A DNA stretch of 63,281 nucleotides from Candidatus Hydrogenedentota bacterium (GTDB lineage Bacteria; Hydrogenedentota; Hydrogenedentia; Hydrogenedentales; GCA-2746185), in NCBI GenBank assembly GCA_046583315.1, contig JAYGCN010000075.1:1-63281 (forward strand). Reading direction: 5' to 3'. Shown piece by piece: positions 1,064-11,491 of this stretch (positions are counted from its first letter, which is position 1; each line of letters starts with the position of its first letter). The notes under the pieces are model-generated. The model was given only the letters and a program-made list of their open reading frames with translations. It was not told the DNA's origin and ran no database searches. A program made the position numbers and the translations under genes.

Positions 1064-3175
1064 TTGACCAATCAGCGCATAATCATCATTCTGCTTCTAT
1101 CCTGTTTCGCATGGATACCCACGAGTCACACGCAAGACGCCGTGGCTCCGGACAAAGACGAAGCAACAGATTTCCCATCCACGCGAACCTACTACTACAA
1201 CGGCAATTCACGGGTCACGGTGCAAATCGCCCTGGACGAGTTACACATCGAATCCAACGCGCCCGTCACCAACGTTCAGGTACTCGGCGATCTTCGACCG
1301 GTTGCGACGAATGCATCGAAGCTTAGGATGCGCACACCTTCGCGAACCCTGGACGACCTCAAGACCGTGGCGCGCGGCCTGTCCGTTGGAGCACAACGCG
1401 CACATGCCACGGCCTATGCACCCGGTATACTCGTGCGCGACGAAGCGGCTTCGCAAACCATCACCAATCGTATACATCTGAAGCCTGCCGAAGGAACAAC
1501 CGTCCAATCCCTCGCGAGCCGTCACGGATTCCGCATACTCCGTTCTATGGTATCGGACCCTGAAATCGTCGAAGTCGAAACGCTCTCACGCGAACTACTC
1601 GCGGGACTCGAATTGGCCAACACCCTTCACGAATCCGGTGACGTTGTTTTCGCGCAACCCGTCATCCAGCGAAGCATGGATCCGCGAATCATCATCAATG
1701 ACCCCCAATTTGAATTTCAATGGAACTTCCTCAACCAATACGACTCATCTCAGTTCACACCGGGCAACGATATCAACCTCGTCCCGGCATGGGATCGCTC
1801 CACAGGCACCGACATCAACATACTTATTGTGGATTCCGGCGTGCTGAATTCACACCCCGACCTCGCCCCAAACGCGCGCACCGATATCGATGTTGACTAC
1901 TTCGAAGGCGGCCAGGATTCCAGTGCAAACACCTTTCACGGTACCGGTGTTGCCGGTCTTGCTGCTGCAAAAGGAAACAACGCTGAGGGGATTGCCGGGG
2001 TTGCTTTCGATGCGGACATCGTCGGTGTTCGACTCATTGTTGGTGCCATCACCGACACGCAGATCGCCGATGCCCTCTCCCACATCGTCAGCGAACCTGT
2101 CGTAGCCAATCAATCTCAGATCAGCAACAACTCCTGGGGACCTTCCGACAGCAGCGCCGCCATAAAAGAGTTGTTACCACCCGTCGTCGAATTCGCCCTC
2201 GCAGATGGTGTCACGACCGGGCGCAACGGTAAAGGCGTGATCTACGTCTGGGCCGGCGGAAACGGTCGTAACAATAACCAAGATATTTCATTCGATGGCT
2301 ACGCCGCCAGTCGATATACCATCGCAGTCGGAGCCACGGGGGGTGCCGGCCTCTTCTCCTCCTATTCCGAACCCGGTGCTTCGCTACTGGTAAATGCCCC
2401 ATCCAGCTTTGACAACATCGGCGTTGTTACAACAACGATAAACGATGCCTACACAGACAGCTTCTCTGGCACATCCGCCTCTGCACCGACGGTGGCCGGT
2501 GTCGTCGCCCTCATGCTCGATGCCAATCCTGCACTGGGCTGGCGCGATGTTCAACACATTCTCGTCATCTCCTCTACCAAAACCAATATCGCTGATACCG
2601 GATGGCACCTGAACGGCGGAGGATTCCTCTTCCATCACGATTATGGATACGGCCGGGTAAACGCAAACATTGCTACCAAACTAGCCGCAACATGGTTTCC
2701 CGTACCAGCCCCCCTAGCAACGATATCCGGATCACAGAGTGCCCTCTCGCTTACCATCCCCGATGCCGACGCAACCGGAATCACAAGCACTATCGATGTC
2801 GTCCAGTCCACTCCCTTCGCGGCTGAGCATGTCGAGGTTGAACTGACCTTGAACCACACCTATCGGGGCGATCTCAACATCATATTGACCTCTCCAAGTG
2901 GCATGCAATCCGTCTTCACGACAACGCACAATGATTCCGCCGACGACTACATCAATTACCTCTTCACCTCCGTCGCGCACTGGGGCGAAGATCCCGACGG
3001 CATATGGGAGCTCACTATATTCGACGGAAACCCCGGAAACGTCGGCGCACTGCAGGATTGGACGCTCAATATTTACGGCGGCGTCCCCTTGTCCACCCTG
3101 AATCCAGCCGCTGCCATCCCCACACTCAAAGTCCCCTTCTTCGAGACGAAGGCTACCCAACCCGCCAAGAATTAA
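1064..3175 (+). CDS. Secreted S8 serine protease, kexin/furin-like (S8B) with prodomain and P-domain
   Basis: Signal peptide; triad LIVDSG, HGTGVAG, GTSASAP; oxyanion GGNG; SWGP, LGWRDVQH, YGYG; P-domain EHVEV..HTYRGDL. Confidence 0.92.
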   Translation: MTNQRIIIILLLSCFAWIPTSHTQDAVAPDKDEATDFPSTRTYYYNGNSRVTVQIALDELHIESNAPVTNVQVLGDLRPVATNASKLRMRTPSRTLDDLKTVARGLSVGAQRAHATAYAPGILVRDEAASQTITNRIHLKPAEGTTVQSLASRHGFRILRSMVSDPEIVEVETLSRELLAGLELANTLHESGDVVFAQPVIQRSMDPRIIINDPQFEFQWNFLNQYDSSQFTPGNDINLVPAWDRSTGTDINILIVDSGVLNSHPDLAPNARTDIDVDYFEGGQDSSANTFHGTGVAGLAAAKGNNAEGIAGVAFDADIVGVRLIVGAITDTQIADALSHIVSEPVVANQSQISNNSWGPSDSSAAIKELLPPVVEFALADGVTTGRNGKGVIYVWAGGNGRNNNQDISFDGYAASRYTIAVGATGGAGLFSSYSEPGASLLVNAPSSFDNIGVVTTTINDAYTDSFSGTSASAPTVAGVVALMLDANPALGWRDVQHILVISSTKTNIADTGWHLNGGGFLFHHDYGYGRVNANIATKLAATWFPVPAPLATISGSQSALSLTIPDADATGITSTIDVVQSTPFAAEHVEVELTLNHTYRGDLNIILTSPSGMQSVFTTTHNDSADDYINYLFTSVAHWGEDPDGIWELTIFDGNPGNVGALQDWTLNIYGGVPLSTLNPAAAIPTLKVPFFETKATQPAKN

Positions 3176-3238: not shown

Positions 3239-4435
3239 ATGAATTTTGCAGATTTCAAGGTCAACGCTTCCTGCGTTGAAGCCTTGACGAAACAGTCCAT
3301 TATCACTCCTACGCCGGTACAAGAGACCGCAATTCCCAAAATTCTTCAGGGAGCCGATCTTATCGCTGTTGCCCAGACCGGTACCGGAAAAACACTCGCC
3401 TACGCCCTGCCCAGCATCACCAAAATCGTCAATAATCCCGGCAAAGGTACACAGATGCTTATCCTTGTACCCACCCGCGAACTCTGTGTGCAGGTTTACA
3501 ACGTTGTTCGTGACATGGCCGAAGTCGCAGGACTCTCAGCCGCTCAGATATACGGCGGCGTCGGATACGACAACCAAACGAAAGCCCTCAAGAACGGTAC
3601 CCACATCATCATCGCTACACCGGGCCGCTTACTGGATCATATTGATCGCCGTAACGCCAACTTCAAGAACATCCAGTTTCTCGTGCTCGATGAAGCCGAC
3701 CGCATGCTCGACATGGGATTTCTCCCCGACGTAAAAGAGATCATCACCTACACCAACAAGAGTCGCCAAACGCTTATGTTCTCCGCGACCTTCCAAGATG
3801 CCATCGCACGCCTCGCGCAGAACATGATGACCGATCCCGAGAAAATTGTTATCGGTGTTATCGCAAAACCTGTCGATACAGTAACCCAGCGACTCTACCC
3901 GGTCCTCGATGAACGTAAACCACGCCTTATCGCTGACATCCTCACTGAAGAAGAACCGGCGTCTTGCATGATTTTCATGCGAACTAAAGTGAGAACCGAG
4001 CAGGTCGCAGCGATCCTCAAAAATAAAGGCTGGAAAGTTGCACAGTTACACGGTGATCGCTCCCAGGGACAGCGTCAACAGGCACTGGACGGATTCCGTA
4101 CTGGCAAATACAAAGTCCTCGTCGCAACAGACGTCGCATCTCGCGGAATCGATATCGACGGCGTCAGTCACGTCATCAATTACGACATTCCCCTCAACCC
4201 CGACGACTACATCCACCGAATCGGTCGTACCGCACGCGCCGATGCCAAAGGGGATGCCTATACCTTGGTCACCCCCGCTGAATTCCAGGCGCTCGGCTCC
4301 ATCGAGAAAACCCTCGGCTACAACATCCCCCGCAAAGAACGTGAAGGCGCTCCCCGTGTCCTCAGCGTATTCAATCCCAACGGCAAAAAAGTGAACAAGG
4401 CCCGTCGCGGAAGAAGCCTCCTGCGACGTCGGTAG
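3239..4435 (+). CDS. DEAD-box ATP-dependent RNA helicase (RhlE-like)
   Basis: Q motif, AQTGTGKT, PTREL, TPGRL, DEAD, SAT, HRIGRTAR; basic C-tail. Confidence 0.95.
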   Translation: MNFADFKVNASCVEALTKQSIITPTPVQETAIPKILQGADLIAVAQTGTGKTLAYALPSITKIVNNPGKGTQMLILVPTRELCVQVYNVVRDMAEVAGLSAAQIYGGVGYDNQTKALKNGTHIIIATPGRLLDHIDRRNANFKNIQFLVLDEADRMLDMGFLPDVKEIITYTNKSRQTLMFSATFQDAIARLAQNMMTDPEKIVIGVIAKPVDTVTQRLYPVLDERKPRLIADILTEEEPASCMIFMRTKVRTEQVAAILKNKGWKVAQLHGDRSQGQRQQALDGFRTGKYKVLVATDVASRGIDIDGVSHVINYDIPLNPDDYIHRIGRTARADAKGDAYTLVTPAEFQALGSIEKTLGYNIPRKEREGAPRVLSVFNPNGKKVNKARRGRSLLRRR

Positions 4436-4440
4436 AGTCG

Positions 4441-4926
4441 TTACTCCACCCCCACCTGATCCAGGTTGATCCGGATCTTCTCCATGATGCTGACCAGTTG
4501 ATCCAGTTCCGCATCATCCAGCACGCTCATGATCTCAGATATTTTTCCTCGATACACACCCGCGATATCGCTGTACATCTTTTCGCCGTGTTCGGTCAGT
4601 TCCACGATGTTATAGCGTCGATCATCCGGCACCGGTTTACGAACCACCAGGTCGGCTTTCTCCATCCGGTCGATGAGGGTCGTGATATTCGCGCGATTTA
4701 CCAGCATCATCCGGCTCAACTCTACCTGAGTCAATCCGCCGACATCCCCACTCTGATGTTTCAGCAATGAGATCACATTAAACTGAACGTCCGTGAGTCC
4801 TCGCAAGCGAAAAAACTCACCCGCCTTCTTCCGCGCACGCGACGCCGTGTAATAAATGCTCAATAAGGCTTCATGCGGAGGATAGTCAAAACCCTTACGC
4901 ATACCCAGTTCAATTTTAAGTGTCAT
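4441..4926 (-). CDS. MarR family transcriptional regulator
   Basis: LTQVELSRMMLVNRANITTLIDRMEKADLV..DRR..LTEHG winged-HTH pattern. Confidence 0.9.
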   Translation of the reverse strand: MTLKIELGMRKGFDYPPHEALLSIYYTASRARKKAGEFFRLRGLTDVQFNVISLLKHQSGDVGGLTQVELSRMMLVNRANITTLIDRMEKADLVVRKPVPDDRRYNIVELTEHGEKMYSDIAGVYRGKISEIMSVLDDAELDQLVSIMEKIRINLDQVGVE

Positions 4927-5157
4927 ACAGTACCCTTCTTAACAAAAACGAACTCTATCTATCACAAGTTAAATTACTCAATAACTGTTAATAAGGGAAC
5001 ATTATACACTTTAGATATAAAAATCAAATTCCAACCCGCCACTACCGATTCATTCACAGTTTTTTCACTTTTCCCACTCTCCTGCGCTTCAAATGCGCTC
5101 GTCACGCGACACCCAAGGAAATCAGCAAATAACCCAAAAAAAACAGGGGCCTTCACC

Positions 5158-5187
5158 TTGACTCCCAATGCGTCCGAATGGCACAGT
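5158..5187 (+). promoter_or_regulatory. Putative promoter of the gcv operon
   Basis: TTGACT (5158-5163) then TG-g-CACAGT extended -10-like element, just upstream of the riboswitch. Confidence 0.45.
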
Positions 5188-5196
5188 ATGGGCCTC

Positions 5197-5299
5197 AAAT
5201 CCAGCGTGTAACTGGCGAGGGTCAATACGACCTGATATGACGTGGAACCAACCACGGGGAAACGCGCTGGATTGTCCTCTACGCCGTACGCCTGGGCAC
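5197..5299 (+). ncRNA. ZMP/ZTP (pfl) riboswitch
   Basis: P1 AATCCAGCGTGT (5198-5209)/ACGCGCTGGATT (5262-5273); ACTGGCG in J1/2; P2 GTGG-AACCAA-CCAC then GGGGA; 3' hairpin GCC-GTA-CGCCTG-GGC whose CGCC can pseudoknot with GGCG; upstream of a one-carbon operon. Confidence 0.88.
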
Positions 5300-5409
5300 A
5301 CAGTGGACCTTGAGCTGCACGAATCTCGACATCGGGATTCGGAATTTGATTGTTGCGTTGTGCGATGCAGGGCTGCATTCATGACGAACGAAATCGGCTG
5401 GAGGCACTG

Positions 5410-6483
5410 ATGCAGAAGACCGCATTATTTGATGCGCACGAAAGACTCGGAGGCAAAGTCGTTGACTTCAACGGCTGGGCGCTACCCGTGCAATTCACCG
5501 GCATCGTCAAAGAACATAATCACACCCGCACCGCCGCCTCGCTCTTCGATTGCTCCCACATGGGCGAATACGTCGTCAAGGGCGAAGACGCGATTCGCAT
5601 ATACAACGACCAGATCATCTCCGACATTTCCAAGTTACCCATTGGTCGCTGTCGTTACGGCGCGCTACTCAACGACTCCGGCGGCATTCTCGACGACCTT
5701 ATCACCTTCCGCATGGCCGAAGATGAACTCTATGTCGTCACCAACGCCGGTCCGCTCGAACACGTAACCGAAATATTCTGCGCCGACAACCCCGGCATGG
5801 CCCACGTCTCCTACGAAACAGCGAAGATCGACATCCAGGGTCCCAACGCGCGCGACCATGCCCTCGCTGCCGGATTCAAAGATGTCGAAGCCCTCAAATA
5901 TTTCAACGCCCTCTGGACCACATGGGAAGGCCACCGCGTTCTATTGTCGCGCACGGGTTACACTGGCGAACTCGGCTATGAACTCTTCATGGACAACGAT
6001 CTCGCCGAGACGGTCTGGAATCGCTTCCACGAAATGGGCGGCGTAGAGCTGGCCGGGCTGGGCGCACGTGATACCTTGCGCACCGAAGTCGGCTACGGTC
6101 TTTCTGGCCAAGACTTCAATGATTCAATCACACCCTTGGAAGCCAACATGGCCCCCTTCATCGAATGGGACACGGACTTTATAGGTAAGCAGGCCCTCAT
6201 AAAGCAGCGCGACGACAATACATACTCCGTTCTGGTCCCAATCAAGACGGGCAGTCGCCGCGCCCCGCGACACGACTTCATTGTCGAACACGAAGACACC
6301 GAAATCGGCACAGTCACCACGGGCACCTTCGGCCCCAGCGTCGAACACGGCGTCGGTTATGCCCGCATCCCCCAACAATACGCCACACCCGGCACGAAAC
6401 TTACCGCCGGCCCAAAACAACTCGAAATCGAAGTTACCACGGCACCGTTTTATAAAGACGGAACCTGCCGGACAAAAATCTAA
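5410..6483 (+). CDS. gcvT: Glycine cleavage system aminomethyltransferase T
   Basis: FDCSHMGE, RTGYTGELGYE, GLGARDTLRTE; start moved to ATG 5410 behind GGAGG. Confidence 0.95.
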   Translation: MQKTALFDAHERLGGKVVDFNGWALPVQFTGIVKEHNHTRTAASLFDCSHMGEYVVKGEDAIRIYNDQIISDISKLPIGRCRYGALLNDSGGILDDLITFRMAEDELYVVTNAGPLEHVTEIFCADNPGMAHVSYETAKIDIQGPNARDHALAAGFKDVEALKYFNALWTTWEGHRVLLSRTGYTGELGYELFMDNDLAETVWNRFHEMGGVELAGLGARDTLRTEVGYGLSGQDFNDSITPLEANMAPFIEWDTDFIGKQALIKQRDDNTYSVLVPIKTGSRRAPRHDFIVEHEDTEIGTVTTGTFGPSVEHGVGYARIPQQYATPGTKLTAGPKQLEIEVTTAPFYKDGTCRTKI

Positions 6484-6508
6484 TCGATAAAACGGAGAAC
6501 ACAGCACT

Positions 6509-6895
6509 ATGTATCCAAGCGATGCCAAATACACGAAGGACCACGAATGGATTCGTCCGATCGGCGACGACTACGCGATTGGAATCACCTCCTTCGCCGC
6601 AGAACAACTCGGCGACATCACCTACGTTGAGTTGCCCGACACCGACACCGAATTCAACGCGGGCGATGAAGCAGCCACTGTTGAATCGGTCAAAGCGGCC
6701 AGTGATATCTACTCGCCGGTCGGGGGTACCGTATCATCGATAAACGACGCGCTCGAAGATGCCCCGGAACTCGTCAATGAAAGCCCCTTTGACGAAGGCT
6801 GGTTCTTCAAGCTTTCCGGGGTGGATGCCTCGGAACTAGAAGGACTCATGGATGCGAAAGCCTATGAAGCCTTTGCGAAGGAGCAGGAACATTGA
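6509..6895 (+). CDS. gcvH: Glycine cleavage system H protein
   Basis: YTKDHEW, LGDITYV, VESVKAASDIYSP lipoyl-lysine motif. Confidence 0.97.
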   Translation: MYPSDAKYTKDHEWIRPIGDDYAIGITSFAAEQLGDITYVELPDTDTEFNAGDEAATVESVKAASDIYSPVGGTVSSINDALEDAPELVNESPFDEGWFFKLSGVDASELEGLMDAKAYEAFAKEQEH

Positions 6896-8181
6896 GCTGG
6901 ACCTCCGCAACAGATGCCGACACCAAGGCCATGCTCGACACCATCGGCGTGAAAAGTATCGACGATCTATTCTCCACCATTCCCGACGATTTACGTCTGA
7001 AATCCTGGGACGTGCCAGAGGGTATCTCCGAGATGGCCACCCGCGCTGAACTCGACCGGCTCGCCAACAAGAATGATGTCGCACTCACCAGTTTCATGGG
7101 CGGCGGATTCTACGACCACTACATCCCCGCTGCCGTAGACGCTCTATCGCTTCGCAGCGAATTTTACACCGCCTACACCCCCTACCAACCCGAATGCGCC
7201 CAAGGCACCCTGCAGAGCATCTACGAATACCAGTCCGCCATCTGCCGACTGACCGAAATGGAATTCGCGAACGCATCTCTTTACGAAGGCGGCACCGCAG
7301 TTTTCGAAGCAGCCACCATGTCACTACGCTGCACCAAGAAACGAAACAAGATCGTGTGTCACCCCTCCATGAACCCCACCTACCGCTCCATGCTCGATAC
7401 GCACATGGCCAATCTCGACGTTGAAATCGTCGATGGTGACGACCCCACCGATGCCGCCTGCGTGATTGTGCAGAATCCTGCCTTCGGCGGCACCATCCAG
7501 GATTTCACAGCGCTCGGGGAAGCCTGCCACGAAGCCGGAGCACTACTGGTGGTCTCCTTCTACCCGATATCCCTCGGCCTCATGAAAACACCCGGTGCGA
7601 TGGGTGCCGATATCGCCATTGCCGAAGGGCAAAGCCTTGGCATCCCCCTCGCTTTCGGCGGCCCCTATCTCGGCATCCTCGCAACCCTCAAAAAACACGT
7701 ACGCAAAATGCCCGGACGCATTTGTGGCCAGACCACCGATACCGAAGGCCGTCGTGGATTTGTGCTCACCTTGCAGGCCCGCGAACAACACATCCGCCGC
7801 GGCAAGGCCATGTCCAATATCTGCTCCAATCAGGCACTCTGCGCCCTGCGCGCGTTGATTTACATGAGCCTGCTCGGAAAAGAAGGCTTCAAAGACGTGG
7901 CGACGCACTGCCATTCCAAATCGGAATACCTGAAATCCAAGCTGACTTTTGGCGAAATCCAGAACAACGGCCCAACGTTCAATGAATTCGTCATACGCCT
8001 TCCCAAAAATGCGAACACTGTTTCCACGGCCCTTTCCAAAGAAGGTTTCGCTGCTGGACTCGTGCTCAGTGAAATCACCAACGCCCACGAAAACGATTTA
8101 CTCATCGCCGTAACGGAACAACGAACCCGCGCCGAGCTCGACGCCTTCGCAACCGTACTGGAGACCGCATCATGCAACTAA
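6892..8181 (+). CDS. gcvPA: Glycine dehydrogenase (decarboxylating) subunit 1
   Basis: EFYTAYTPYQPE..QGTLQ, REQHIRR, SNICSNQAL; TTG start overlapping gcvH stop. Confidence 0.95.
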   Translation: MSWTSATDADTKAMLDTIGVKSIDDLFSTIPDDLRLKSWDVPEGISEMATRAELDRLANKNDVALTSFMGGGFYDHYIPAAVDALSLRSEFYTAYTPYQPECAQGTLQSIYEYQSAICRLTEMEFANASLYEGGTAVFEAATMSLRCTKKRNKIVCHPSMNPTYRSMLDTHMANLDVEIVDGDDPTDAACVIVQNPAFGGTIQDFTALGEACHEAGALLVVSFYPISLGLMKTPGAMGADIAIAEGQSLGIPLAFGGPYLGILATLKKHVRKMPGRICGQTTDTEGRRGFVLTLQAREQHIRRGKAMSNICSNQALCALRALIYMSLLGKEGFKDVATHCHSKSEYLKSKLTFGEIQNNGPTFNEFVIRLPKNANTVSTALSKEGFAAGLVLSEITNAHENDLLIAVTEQRTRAELDAFATVLETASCN

Positions 8182-9605
8182 TCTTCGAAAAATCGCACGA
8201 AGGCCGCCGCGGCATCACCCTGGACAAGCTCGATGTCCCTCTCGCGAATCTACCTGACGCTTTACAACGCGAAGAATCCGCTGCTCTTCCAGAAGTCAGC
8301 GAATTCGACGTGGTACGTCATTACACCGAACTTTCCAATCGCAATTATGGACTCGACTCTCATTTCTACCCACTCGGCTCCTGCACCATGAAATACAATC
8401 CGAAGATCGCCGAAGTCGTGGCGGCCTTGCCCGGTTTTGCCGGACTCCACCCCCACACCTCATCGTCCCCCCAGACCTGGAATCAATGCCAGGGCGCTTT
8501 CGAACTCATCTACGAATGCGAGCACGTACTCGCCGAAATTTCCGGCTTCAAAGAAGTCTCGCTCCAACCCATCGCGGGTGCTCACGGCGAGCTCGCCGGC
8601 ACTCTCTTAATCGCGGCCTATCATCGCGATCGCGGCAACAAAAAAACCAAAATCGTCGTACCCGATTCGGCACACGGCACCAACCCCGCCAGCGCGGCCA
8701 TCGCGGGCTACGATGTTGTCGAAGTGCCCTCCGACAAAGACGGCACCATCCACCTCGACGCGTTCAAAGAAGTGATGGATGACGAGGTTGCCGGTATAAT
8801 GCTCACCTGCCCCAATACCCACGGCCTCTTCGAATCCGACGTCAAAGCCATCGCCGAAATTGCGCACCAACACGACGCGTTACTCTACTACGACGGAGCC
8901 AACTTGAACGCTATCATGGGCGAATGCCGCCCCGGCGATCTCGGTTTCGATGTAATGCACTTCAACCTGCACAAAACATTCGCAACCCCACACGGTATGG
9001 GCGGACCAGGTTCCGGAGCCATCGGCGTCGGAGAGCGCTTACTCCCCTATATACCCGGACCGCGCGTTATCAAGAACGACGACCAGTTCACGCTGGAAAT
9101 GCCCGAAAAATCCGTTGGTCGCATGGCGCCCTTCTTCGGGAACTTCGGCATGGCGGTGCGCGCCTACGCCTACATACTGCATCTCGGAAACGAAGGCCTC
9201 AAAGAGGTCTCCCACATCTCCGTGCTCAACGCCAACTACATCCACGCGCGCCTGAAACACGCCTACACTTCCGCCTTCGACAACCAATTTATGCACGAGT
9301 GTATTTTTACGGCGAGTCCGCAAGCCGCCAAAGGCACCAACGCGCTCGACATTGCCAAGGCCCTGCTTGATTACGGCTATCACGCGCCCACGGTCTATTT
9401 CCCACTCACTGTTCCCGAAAGCATCATGATAGAGCCGACTGAGACCGAGTCCAAAGAAACGATGGATGGATTCTGCGATGCCATGCTTGCAATTGCCGAG
9501 CGCATCGAAAACGAAGAGTCCCCCTATAAATCTTCACCGACCACGCTACCCGTAAGTCGCCTCGACGAAGTACAAGCCGCAAAATCCCTCAACTGCTCCT
9601 GTTAG
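8172..9605 (+). CDS. gcvPB: Glycine dehydrogenase (decarboxylating) subunit 2
   Basis: PLGSCTMKYNP, SAHGTNPASA, NLHKTF (PLP lysine), IEPTETES. Confidence 0.96.
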   Translation: MQLIFEKSHEGRRGITLDKLDVPLANLPDALQREESAALPEVSEFDVVRHYTELSNRNYGLDSHFYPLGSCTMKYNPKIAEVVAALPGFAGLHPHTSSSPQTWNQCQGAFELIYECEHVLAEISGFKEVSLQPIAGAHGELAGTLLIAAYHRDRGNKKTKIVVPDSAHGTNPASAAIAGYDVVEVPSDKDGTIHLDAFKEVMDDEVAGIMLTCPNTHGLFESDVKAIAEIAHQHDALLYYDGANLNAIMGECRPGDLGFDVMHFNLHKTFATPHGMGGPGSGAIGVGERLLPYIPGPRVIKNDDQFTLEMPEKSVGRMAPFFGNFGMAVRAYAYILHLGNEGLKEVSHISVLNANYIHARLKHAYTSAFDNQFMHECIFTASPQAAKGTNALDIAKALLDYGYHAPTVYFPLTVPESIMIEPTETESKETMDGFCDAMLAIAERIENEESPYKSSPTTLPVSRLDEVQAAKSLNCSC

Positions 9606-9611
9606 CCCGTC

Positions 9612-10331
9612 ATGATCGCGTTGGATTACACCTTCGAAAATCCCAACGCGAATCTCGCCTTCGATGAAGTGTTGCTCCGTGATGCAGAGCGCGAATCCAG
9701 TGACGACGTGTTGCGCTTCTGGGAGAGTACCACGCCATTCGTTGTGCTTGGACTCACCCAGCGCATCAACGACGTGGTGTACGTCGACCGGTGCACAGAG
9801 GACGCCATTCCTATCACCCGTCGTTGTTCCGCGGGCGGCTGCGTACTACAGGGACCCGGCTGCCTCAACTTCACCTTGATACTCGCCAAGAATCGCCATC
9901 CTCAAATCATTTCCATCCAGAATTCCTACGACTATATTTTGAATCGGATAATTGATGCCCTGCCGGAATACGACCTGAATCGCGCGGGGATCTCGGATAT
10001 CGCCCTCGGAGATCTCAAAGTCTCTGGGAACGCCCAACGACGCCATAAAAATTACATCCTTCACCATGGAACCATCCTGTACGATACCGATATTCAACAA
10101 GTATCGCGTTACTTGAAGGAGCCCAAAGATCGACCGGACTATCGCGGAACACGATCACACGAAAAATTCGTATCAAACCTTGCAACCTCTCGGGAATCTC
10201 TAATGGAGACAATCCGCACCATTTTTGAATGTGAAGCAGCGACGAACTCCCCGCGTCGGGATATTTTGAAAGAAGCCGCCGAACTCGCTCAGACGAAATA
10301 CGACAAACAGGCATGGATATACCGAAAATAG
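9612..10331 (+). CDS. Lipoate-protein ligase / octanoyltransferase family (catalytic domain only)
   Basis: NLAFDE, RRCSAGGCV, KVSGNAQ, HHGT; follows gcvPB. Confidence 0.85.
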   Translation: MIALDYTFENPNANLAFDEVLLRDAERESSDDVLRFWESTTPFVVLGLTQRINDVVYVDRCTEDAIPITRRCSAGGCVLQGPGCLNFTLILAKNRHPQIISIQNSYDYILNRIIDALPEYDLNRAGISDIALGDLKVSGNAQRRHKNYILHHGTILYDTDIQQVSRYLKEPKDRPDYRGTRSHEKFVSNLATSRESLMETIRTIFECEAATNSPRRDILKEAAELAQTKYDKQAWIYRK

Positions 10332-10358: not shown

Positions 10359-10387
10359 TTGACGTAAAATATACAGTAAGGTAGAAT
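10359..10387 (+). promoter_or_regulatory. Sigma70-type promoter, probably giving a leaderless mRNA
   Basis: TTGACG (10359-10364), 17 nt spacer, TAGAAT (10382-10387); GTG start 6 nt after the -10 box. Confidence 0.7.
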
Positions 10388-11074: not shown

Positions 11075-11491
11075 ATGCCACTCGCAAAATCTAAACGCTG
11101 CGATACATTGTTCAACAAAAATGAAGAGCCTATCTGCGGCGAATGCGAACCGCTTGAACGGGCCGATCACGAAACCGTAAGGGATTACCTCATTGAACAT
11201 CCCAACGAGACATCTGAACACATTTCTGAAAACATGGATGTTGACGTTAAATGCATTCTGCGGCTCGTTGATACAGGCGCGATAGCCAGTGTGGACTTGG
11301 GCGGCGATGCACAGTGCGGACAATGCGGTGCGCCAGCGATCAGCGTATCCAAACGACTCTGCACCGCGTGTCTCGACAAGCTGGAGAAAAAGATGACCGA
11401 CGTCCAGAGAAGCATCCAGCAAACCCACGAAACCAAACGAACTGCTGAGAGACTACGGGTTCATGACGCATTGGAAGAAAAACGCCGTTAG
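11075..11491 (+). CDS. YvyF-like (flagellar operon) zinc-finger/HTH protein
   Basis: LAKSKRC..LF..ICGEC..E..VRDYL..HP..I..GAI..CGQCG..LCTAC resembles Bacillus YvyF; AGGAG RBS. Confidence 0.7.
   Translation: MPLAKSKRCDTLFNKNEEPICGECEPLERADHETVRDYLIEHPNETSEHISENMDVDVKCILRLVDTGAIASVDLGGDAQCGQCGAPAISVSKRLCTACLDKLEKKMTDVQRSIQQTHETKRTAERLRVHDALEEKRR

Follow-up and report, generated by a model that had tools for sequence, protein, structure and literature searches.

In Escherichia coli, the glycine cleavage operon gcvTHP is controlled by GcvA/GcvR and PurR, transcription factors which read glycine and purines. Riboswitches of the ZMP/ZTP class (pfl motif, RF01750), such as those of Clostridium beijerinckii pfl, Thermosinus carboxydivorans, and Fusobacterium ulcerans, consist of a P1-J1/2-P2 part, a variable linker, the P3 helix, and a pseudoknot (PMC10085676, partial text), and their ligands, the mono- and triphosphates of 5-aminoimidazole-4-carboxamide riboside (ZMP and ZTP), accumulate when 10-formyltetrahydrofolate (10-formyl-THF) is short (PMC9481103, partial text). 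An element of this class was found in a 63,281-nucleotide contig (JAYGCN010000075.1) of the Candidatus Hydrogenedentota bacterium assembly GCA_046583315.1, the whole of which is referred to below as the window. It lies at the predicted 5' end of a gcvT-gcvH-gcvPA-gcvPB-lplA-like transcript, where it is likely to act as an ON switch on the translation of gcvT.

The aptamer architecture is common to the window and the three systems mentioned above, and the logic of formyl-THF supply is shared with the known ZTP riboswitches, a purH-like gene being a co-target in Hydrogenedentota. The window differs from them in that the target is the glycine cleavage operon, no overlapping intrinsic terminator is present, and control is probably exerted at the ribosome-binding site (RBS), whereas the ZTP examples in the literature examined (partial texts) are mostly terminator-based; in addition, the family of leaders to which the window belongs has a hairpin inserted in J1/2 and a predicted extension of P3. 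With the glycine riboswitch (gcvT motif, RF00504; for example in Bacillus subtilis), the element shares its target genes, its position in the leader, and the predicted ON direction (PMC7266159, partial text), but the glycine riboswitch senses the substrate whereas a ZTP switch before gcv genes would sense a shortage of the product. In E. coli, glycine cleavage is likewise tied to purine and one-carbon demand, but by no ZMP-reading RNA. The tandem ZTP/glycine riboswitches of Bacillus and Oceanobacillus, which include a glycine OFF aptamer, control the enzyme starting the pathway from 3-phosphoglycerate to serine (PMC9481103, partial text) and likewise link ZTP, glycine, and one-carbon supply, whereas in the window a single ZTP aptamer precedes the glycine cleavage genes. 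The riboswitch class is a known one; no ZTP switch before gcv genes was found in the literature searched, which did not include the gene tables of the 2015 paper defining the class, where gcv may be listed among the minor targets. The partial texts of PMC7266159, PMC7264889, PMC9943018, PMC10085676, PMC10117056, PMC7337938, PMC7484762, PMC3766115, and bioRxiv 10.64898/2026.06.17.733018 contain no ZTP-gcv link, neither "pfl" nor "gcv" occurs in the main text of Sun 2013, and no paper on riboswitches of Hydrogenedentota was found in the literature search.

The covariance-model check suggested in an earlier note on this DNA, which had been made from the sequence alone, was carried out by scanning the whole window against Rfam. 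The sole match is RF01750 at 5198-5304 (+), with a score of 55.9 bits (gathering score, 39 bits) and an E value of 2.2e-06, and it spans the full model (positions 1-86 of 86). It is located in the 5' leader of one-carbon folate genes, on the same strand, and 3' of a promoter-like box. The hallmarks which the note had listed, namely P1, ACUGGCG, GUGG/CCAC, GGGGA, and GCC..CGCCUGGGC, were all located, and the distance to gcvT, given there as about 110 nt, amounts to 112 nt from the end of P3 (5297) to the ATG (5410). All the P1 and P2 pairs and the three core pairs of P3 are standard, unlike the two outer pairs which the model has in P3; the core nucleotides are all intact, as are the four pairs of the pseudoknot. 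In an alignment of 13 sequences of the family, with the structure borrowed from the window's Rfam alignment, 89% of the cells pair, 10 P1 pairs are changed on both sides, and the covariation score was reached by none of 500 shuffles. The pseudoknot is paired in 96% of the cells and, since its positions are nearly invariant, it receives no support from covariation. The match before gcvT is the only ZTP match in the genome (96.7% complete). That no glycine-riboswitch motifs were found, as the note had stated, agrees with our scans, as RF00504 was found neither in the window (cmscan) nor in the genome (150 of 423 candidates scored). By class membership, the window element can be regarded as a ZMP/ZTP riboswitch, and a response to ZMP would be expected from its class.

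The association with gcvT is conserved across most of the sampled phylum. The closest relatives of this gcvT belong mostly to Ca. Hydrogenedentota, and the arrangement was examined starting either from the gene (the best 80 gcvT loci chosen by protein) or from the RNA (41 related genomes), in two sets which share genomes and in which kin are not independent. RF01750 is located directly upstream of gcvT, on the same strand, in 70 of the 80 loci, the other 10 comprising three without upstream DNA and seven without the aptamer; in these seven and in one gcvT-like locus of another family, no RF01750 match was obtained at E up to 1. The RNA-based search gave 43 RF01750 matches in 37 of the 41 genomes, and the tally of downstream genes, which the earlier note had proposed, gave 31 gcvT genes, 11 genes encoding a purH-like AICAR transformylase, and one site cut by a contig end. 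The similarity of the purH-like product (372 aa) to PurH is confined to the AICAR transformylase portion; NCBIfam was run on three of the 11, which match PurH under its full-length cut-off, the others being assigned by their shared N-terminus, and one passes the PF01808 cut-off. These targets lie at L031, L032, L034-L037, L041, L044-L046, and L020. In a survey of the phylum, RF01750 was present in 121 of 135 genomes, and RF00504 exceeded its cut-off in none of the 135 (28 candidates scored per genome; detection in 2 of 14 control genomes). Because of this limited scoring and the weak recovery of the control, the scans of the individual loci, in which no RF00504 was found at any of the 80 gcvT loci, are the stronger test. 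Among metagenome loci with upstream DNA, a simple motif test detected the aptamer in 56 of 76, and in none of the seven most distant gcvT loci (38-40% identity). The two genomes sampled from outside the order lack both a ZTP match and a close gcvT match.

The aptamer loop and the ribosome-binding region of gcvT show a non-random complementarity. Among 71 gcvT leaders examined, 35 carry GGAGG, and in 33 of these the next base is C, as compared with 31 of 165 other long open reading frames (ORFs) of the source genome; since the 16S tail reads ACCUCCUU, this C adds nothing to the Shine-Dalgarno (SD) pairing. The AGGC motif occurs within 16 nt before the start codon in 45 of 81 gcvT, 4 of 75 gcvH, and 5 of 78 gcvPA genes, and in none of the 11 purH-like leaders, and AGGCG is complementary to the pseudoknot strand (CGCCU) of loop L3. 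Covariation links the variable bases of L3 to those following AGGCG (19 Watson-Crick pairs at +2, 11.4 expected, p 0.003, 35 leaders). In permutation tests, which count kin as independent, matched L3-RBS duplexes were stronger than mismatched ones (z -5.3, n=96), and when the tested interval was slid from -45 to +95 the signal appeared only at -15 and -10 (z -3.9 and -4.2).

The mechanism that best fits these observations would begin with a shortage of 10-formyl-THF and the build-up of ZMP and ZTP, which would lock the pseudoknot and P3 and thereby free the RBS of gcvT, which is predicted to be paired in their absence. In most of the phylum, the CGCCU of L3 would pair with the AGGCG beside the SD sequence; in the window's family, the linker and the strand following P3 would together form the extended P3 in the ON state and would bind the SD sequence in the OFF state. 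Since the switch probably acts on the translation of gcvT, its reach to the downstream genes, including the one encoding the lipoylation enzyme, would need polarity, and these genes would follow gcvT via translational coupling and Rho polarity. We infer that the RNA binds its class ligand, that binding turns expression on, and that the effect extends as far as the lplA-like gene.

Both strands of the predicted P3 extension can alternatively pair with the RBS in the window leader. Among 2000 structures sampled from the ligand-free ensemble, the SD sequence was paired in 1999, its partner being the linker/P3 strand in 649 and the post-P3 strand in 1350, and both pairings exclude the extended P3. 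The duplex between the linker and this decoy has a mean energy of -11.5 kcal/mol in 15 leaders of the family, vs -7.5 in 78 others. When the extended P3 was locked, the predicted cost of opening the RBS decreased from 12.0 to 8.4 kcal/mol in the window leader, from 10.7 to 5.0 in a genome of the same genus, and from 10.1 to 6.5 in a third genome, and the decrease was at least 2 kcal/mol in 7 of the 13 family leaders. The same-genus genome retains the leader pairings despite the divergence of its leader. The sequence of the two leader hairpins is not conserved among the relatives. The extended P3 probably competes with the SD pairing in this family, according to these fold predictions.

Several results weigh against translational ON control. 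A tree-based L3-RBS test, which was underpowered, yielded only 3 independent pairs (p about 1), and AGGCG is kept before gcvT in at least two loci with no aptamer match (L070 and L203), so that part of the AGGC signal may be due to inheritance. In the window's family, L3-RBS covariation is absent (z -0.4), the comparison of matched with mismatched linker-decoy duplexes is not significant (z -1.2), and the linker-RBS covariation is weak and post hoc (z -1.8, p 0.037, n=16). The RBS-opening cost does not change when only P3 and the pseudoknot are locked (11.3 vs 11.3 and 12.0 vs 12.0 kcal/mol), switching of the window leader being predicted only if the P3 extension is included in the bound state; even so, the ON model leaves an opening cost of 8.4 kcal/mol, and in 6 of the 13 family leaders the cost falls by 1.2 kcal/mol or less with the extension, or increases. 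For the phylum, the observations are best read as translational ON control; for the window leader, where the model depends on the P3 extension, this is plausible but less secure. Two other mechanisms were discarded at the scale of the phylum: linker-RBS pairing, the covariation being absent (z -0.7), and a competing strand about 45 nt inside gcvT, where the minimum of the raw duplex energy at +27 to +33 is nearly matched by shuffled modules and no matched-vs-mismatched signal exists from +25 to +45 (z -0.1 to -0.9). An initial comparison of opening energies (mean 2.0 kcal/mol; >1 in 39 of 70) was set aside because deleting the aptamer itself deletes pairing partners.

Control might also be exerted on transcription, with the hairpin at 5320-5341 and its U-rich tail, or Rho loading, halting the RNA polymerase unless the bound aptamer interferes, in the manner of tug-of-war ZTP switches. 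This would directly account for the regulation of the whole operon, Rho is encoded in the genome, and two purH-like leaders (L035 and L046) carry classical terminators overlapping P3, so that one phylum may use both types of platform. The hairpin is the one terminator-like site in the window leader (-10.6 kcal/mol), but this is the chance level, as shuffles give 0.9, and its tail AUUUGAUU is a poor U tract; terminator-like elements occur in only 14 of 96 non-redundant gcvT leaders and not in the same-genus leader. Natural tug-of-war ZTP switches mostly have spacers of <5 nt and terminators of < -15 kcal/mol (bioRxiv 10.64898/2026.06.17.733018, partial text), whereas the hairpin, the only candidate here for a strong terminator close to P3 (within about 5 nt) and not overlapping it, is both weaker and about 20 nt away. 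Being weak and not conserved, it was rejected as an intrinsic terminator, and transcriptional ON control seems unlikely. That the aptamer is real but uncoupled from expression in this organism, the operon being set by a protein such as the product of the divergent MarR-family gene (4441-4926) or a glycine-sensing factor, is quite improbable. The equilibrium model does show little switching without the P3 extension, relatives with degenerate or lost aptamers exist (L086, L149, and L160), and the MarR gene is the operon's neighbor both here and in two members of the family; the loci of the other families, however, contain no match to this neighbor, and the intact core and pseudoknot, together with the leader pairings retained in the diverged same-genus leader, argue for a functional RNA. 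A protein regulator could moreover act in addition, with the RNA still active.

The opposite direction of control, in which ZMP binding would keep or make the RBS closed, for example to spare glycine, or because the system operates in the glycine-making direction and uses up one-carbon units, draws on the fact that the SD sequence and the AUG remain paired with the strand 5299-5317 when P3 and the pseudoknot are locked, a pairing which on inspection keeps compensatory changes in the same-genus leader. The very short leader before 701 (L159), where the SD sequence overlaps the 3' strand of P3, is a possible OFF-type or broken variant, and OFF-type ZTP switches have been predicted at moeA (PMC9481103, partial text). 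From the L3-RBS covariation, however, it follows that the partner of the RBS is the pseudoknot strand, which would become unavailable on ligand binding, and the purH-like and folD co-targets suit an ON logic. In addition, Fhs, which is required for the formate-fed reductive route, was not found in the genome (96.7% complete), and an OFF switch is very improbable.

The ON switch proposed here would be consistent with the metabolic role of the operon. Glycine cleavage makes 5,10-methylene-THF, which FolD converts into the 10-formyl-THF required by PurH. Because ZMP builds up only after glycine has entered the purine ring, a ZMP signal would mean that glycine is sufficient and formyl units are short, and since no Fhs was found, serine and glycine would be the organism's one-carbon sources. 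The genome also encodes glyA, folD, lipA, and rho; its purH-like gene has no ZTP match, and no RF01750 match was obtained at the glyA, folD, and lipA loci at E up to 1. The earlier note had proposed that the organism expresses glycine cleavage and its lipoylation enzyme on one-carbon demand rather than glycine excess. The purH-like co-target and the presence of folD in the operon of two relatives are as demand predicts; the contrast with glycine excess stands as far as riboswitches are concerned, while glycine may act via a protein; and the putative lipoylation enzyme is probably encoded by the last gene of the operon here, but of the 22 relatives' loci with DNA beyond gcvPB only 14 have an lplA-like gene next to it, folD being located there in 2 of the remaining 8. 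The metabolic logic is sensible rather than startling, and the element is not of a new kind. With the window's arrangement, glycine cleavage joins the ZTP regulon as its commonest target in the sampled genomes of an uncultured phylum, indicating that glycine cleavage probably operates there in the direction making one-carbon units; it also provides a clean case of one riboswitch class replacing another at the same genes, and about 100 non-redundant leaders with a co-varying loop and RBS should make translational ZTP control directly testable. A wider proposal, which we regard as possible but rather doubtful as a whole, is that the gcv operon is the main ZTP target of the phylum, substrate sensing having been rewired to folate-stress sensing, that L3 masks and co-evolves with the SD region, and that the J1/3 linker, as a rule featureless, serves as the switching strand in the window's family and toggles between a decoy and the real SD sequence, which would be an undescribed platform.

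The coordinates of the leader and operon are listed in Table 1. The four genes encoding the T, H, and split P proteins exceed the curated NCBIfam cut-offs and are closely spaced on one strand: the spacing from gcvT to the lplA-like gene is 25 nt, an overlap, an overlap, and 6 nt, the gcvPA gene starting with a TTG which overlaps the gcvH stop codon. The lplA-like protein gives a TIGR00545 match below the cut-off, and lipoate ligases are its closest relatives among solved structures (E 1e-17). It is probably encoded by the last gene of the operon, which would end at 10331 since the next gene has a promoter-like site of its own at 10359-10387. The promoter boxes upstream of the aptamer are located directly 5' of P1 and are conserved in the family alignment, the transcript start being predicted a few nt before P1, and a -35-like box occurs at the matching distance in 67 of 94 ZTP-gcvT loci, a control window giving 7 of 94; the predicted promoter scores under the threshold of a simple promoter scan. 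As the boxes adjoin P1 and keep a fixed distance from it, the aptamer is probably the first thing transcribed.

Table 1. Features of the gcv leader and operon (window coordinates)
Feature	Position	Strand	Basis
Predicted sigma-70-type promoter	5158-5187	+	-35 TTGACT 5158-5163, 18-nt spacer, extended -10 TGnCACAGT 5179-5187
ZMP/ZTP aptamer	5198-5304	+	Rfam RF01750 (55.9 bits), pairs mapped, P1 covariation
P1	5200-5209/5262-5271	+	Aptamer pair mapping
J1/2 ACUGGCG	5211-5217	+	Read from sequence/Rfam alignment
Pseudoknot GGCG/CGCC	5214-5217 with 5289-5292	+	Four Watson-Crick pairs
Inserted hairpin in J1/2	about 5219-5233	+	Fold of aptamer
P2 GUGG/CCAC	5242-5245/5252-5255	+	Aptamer pair mapping
Predicted P3 extension, linker GUCCUCU (anti-SD-like) 5274-5280 with AGUGGAC 5302-5308	5274-5308	+	Constrained folds of family members, state energies
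P3	5283-5285/5295-5297	+	Aptamer pair mapping
GCC..CGCCUGGGC motif	5283-5297	+	Read from sequence; GGGGA motif likewise present
Two leader hairpins	5320-5341, 5350-5391	+	Predicted folds; bring post-P3 strand beside SD
gcvT ribosome-binding region, SD GGAGG 5400-5404 then C, start codon 5410	5395-5412	+	Sequence and sampled folds
gcvT, aminomethyltransferase (T protein)	5410-6483	+	NF001567 337.8 bits (cut-off 300); TIGR00528 297.5 (235.85)
gcvH, lipoyl carrier (H protein)	6509-6895	+	TIGR00527 159.3 bits (cut-off 115.85)
gcvPA, glycine decarboxylase subunit 1	6892-8181	+	NF001696 563.6 bits (cut-off 364)
gcvPB, glycine decarboxylase subunit 2	8172-9605	+	NF003346 691.8 bits (cut-off 441)
lplA-like, lipoate-protein ligase/lipoyltransferase family, catalytic domain only, 239 aa	9612-10331	+	PF21948 139 bits (cut-off 27)

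The MarR-family regulator gene at 4441-4926 (-) is divergent from the gcv promoter and adjoins the gcv operon only here and in the two family members mentioned above; upstream of it, an AT-rich region (4913-5016) contains imperfect inverted repeats (4913-4923/5006-5016 and 4925-4944/4986-5005), a possible operator. The gene at 3239-4435 (+), convergent with the MarR gene, encodes a DEAD-box RNA helicase falling below the subfamily cut-offs, and the ORF at 1064-3175 (+; 703 aa) encodes what we take, from motifs seen by eye, to be a secreted protease of the subtilisin family whose C-terminal region resembles a P-domain. On the other side of the operon, a 138-aa ORF at 11075-11491 (+) shows a weak match, below the cut-off, to the YvyF flagellar-region family. 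Elsewhere in the genome, at G000:C135:3252-4229, lies a distant paralogue of gcvT (27% identity).

Among the relatives, degenerate ZTP-like leaders with eroded core motifs precede gcvT at L086:1170-1500, where no Rfam match was obtained, and at L173, L149, L160, and L164, apparently as a result of riboswitch decay. Extra ORFs or repeats are inserted between gcvT and gcvH at L050:1593-2186, L053:1559-2032, and L052:1526-2045, the last of which contains a tandem repeat, and matches to the Acido-Lenti-1 RNA lie near gcvT at L080:1163-1208 and L120:661-709.

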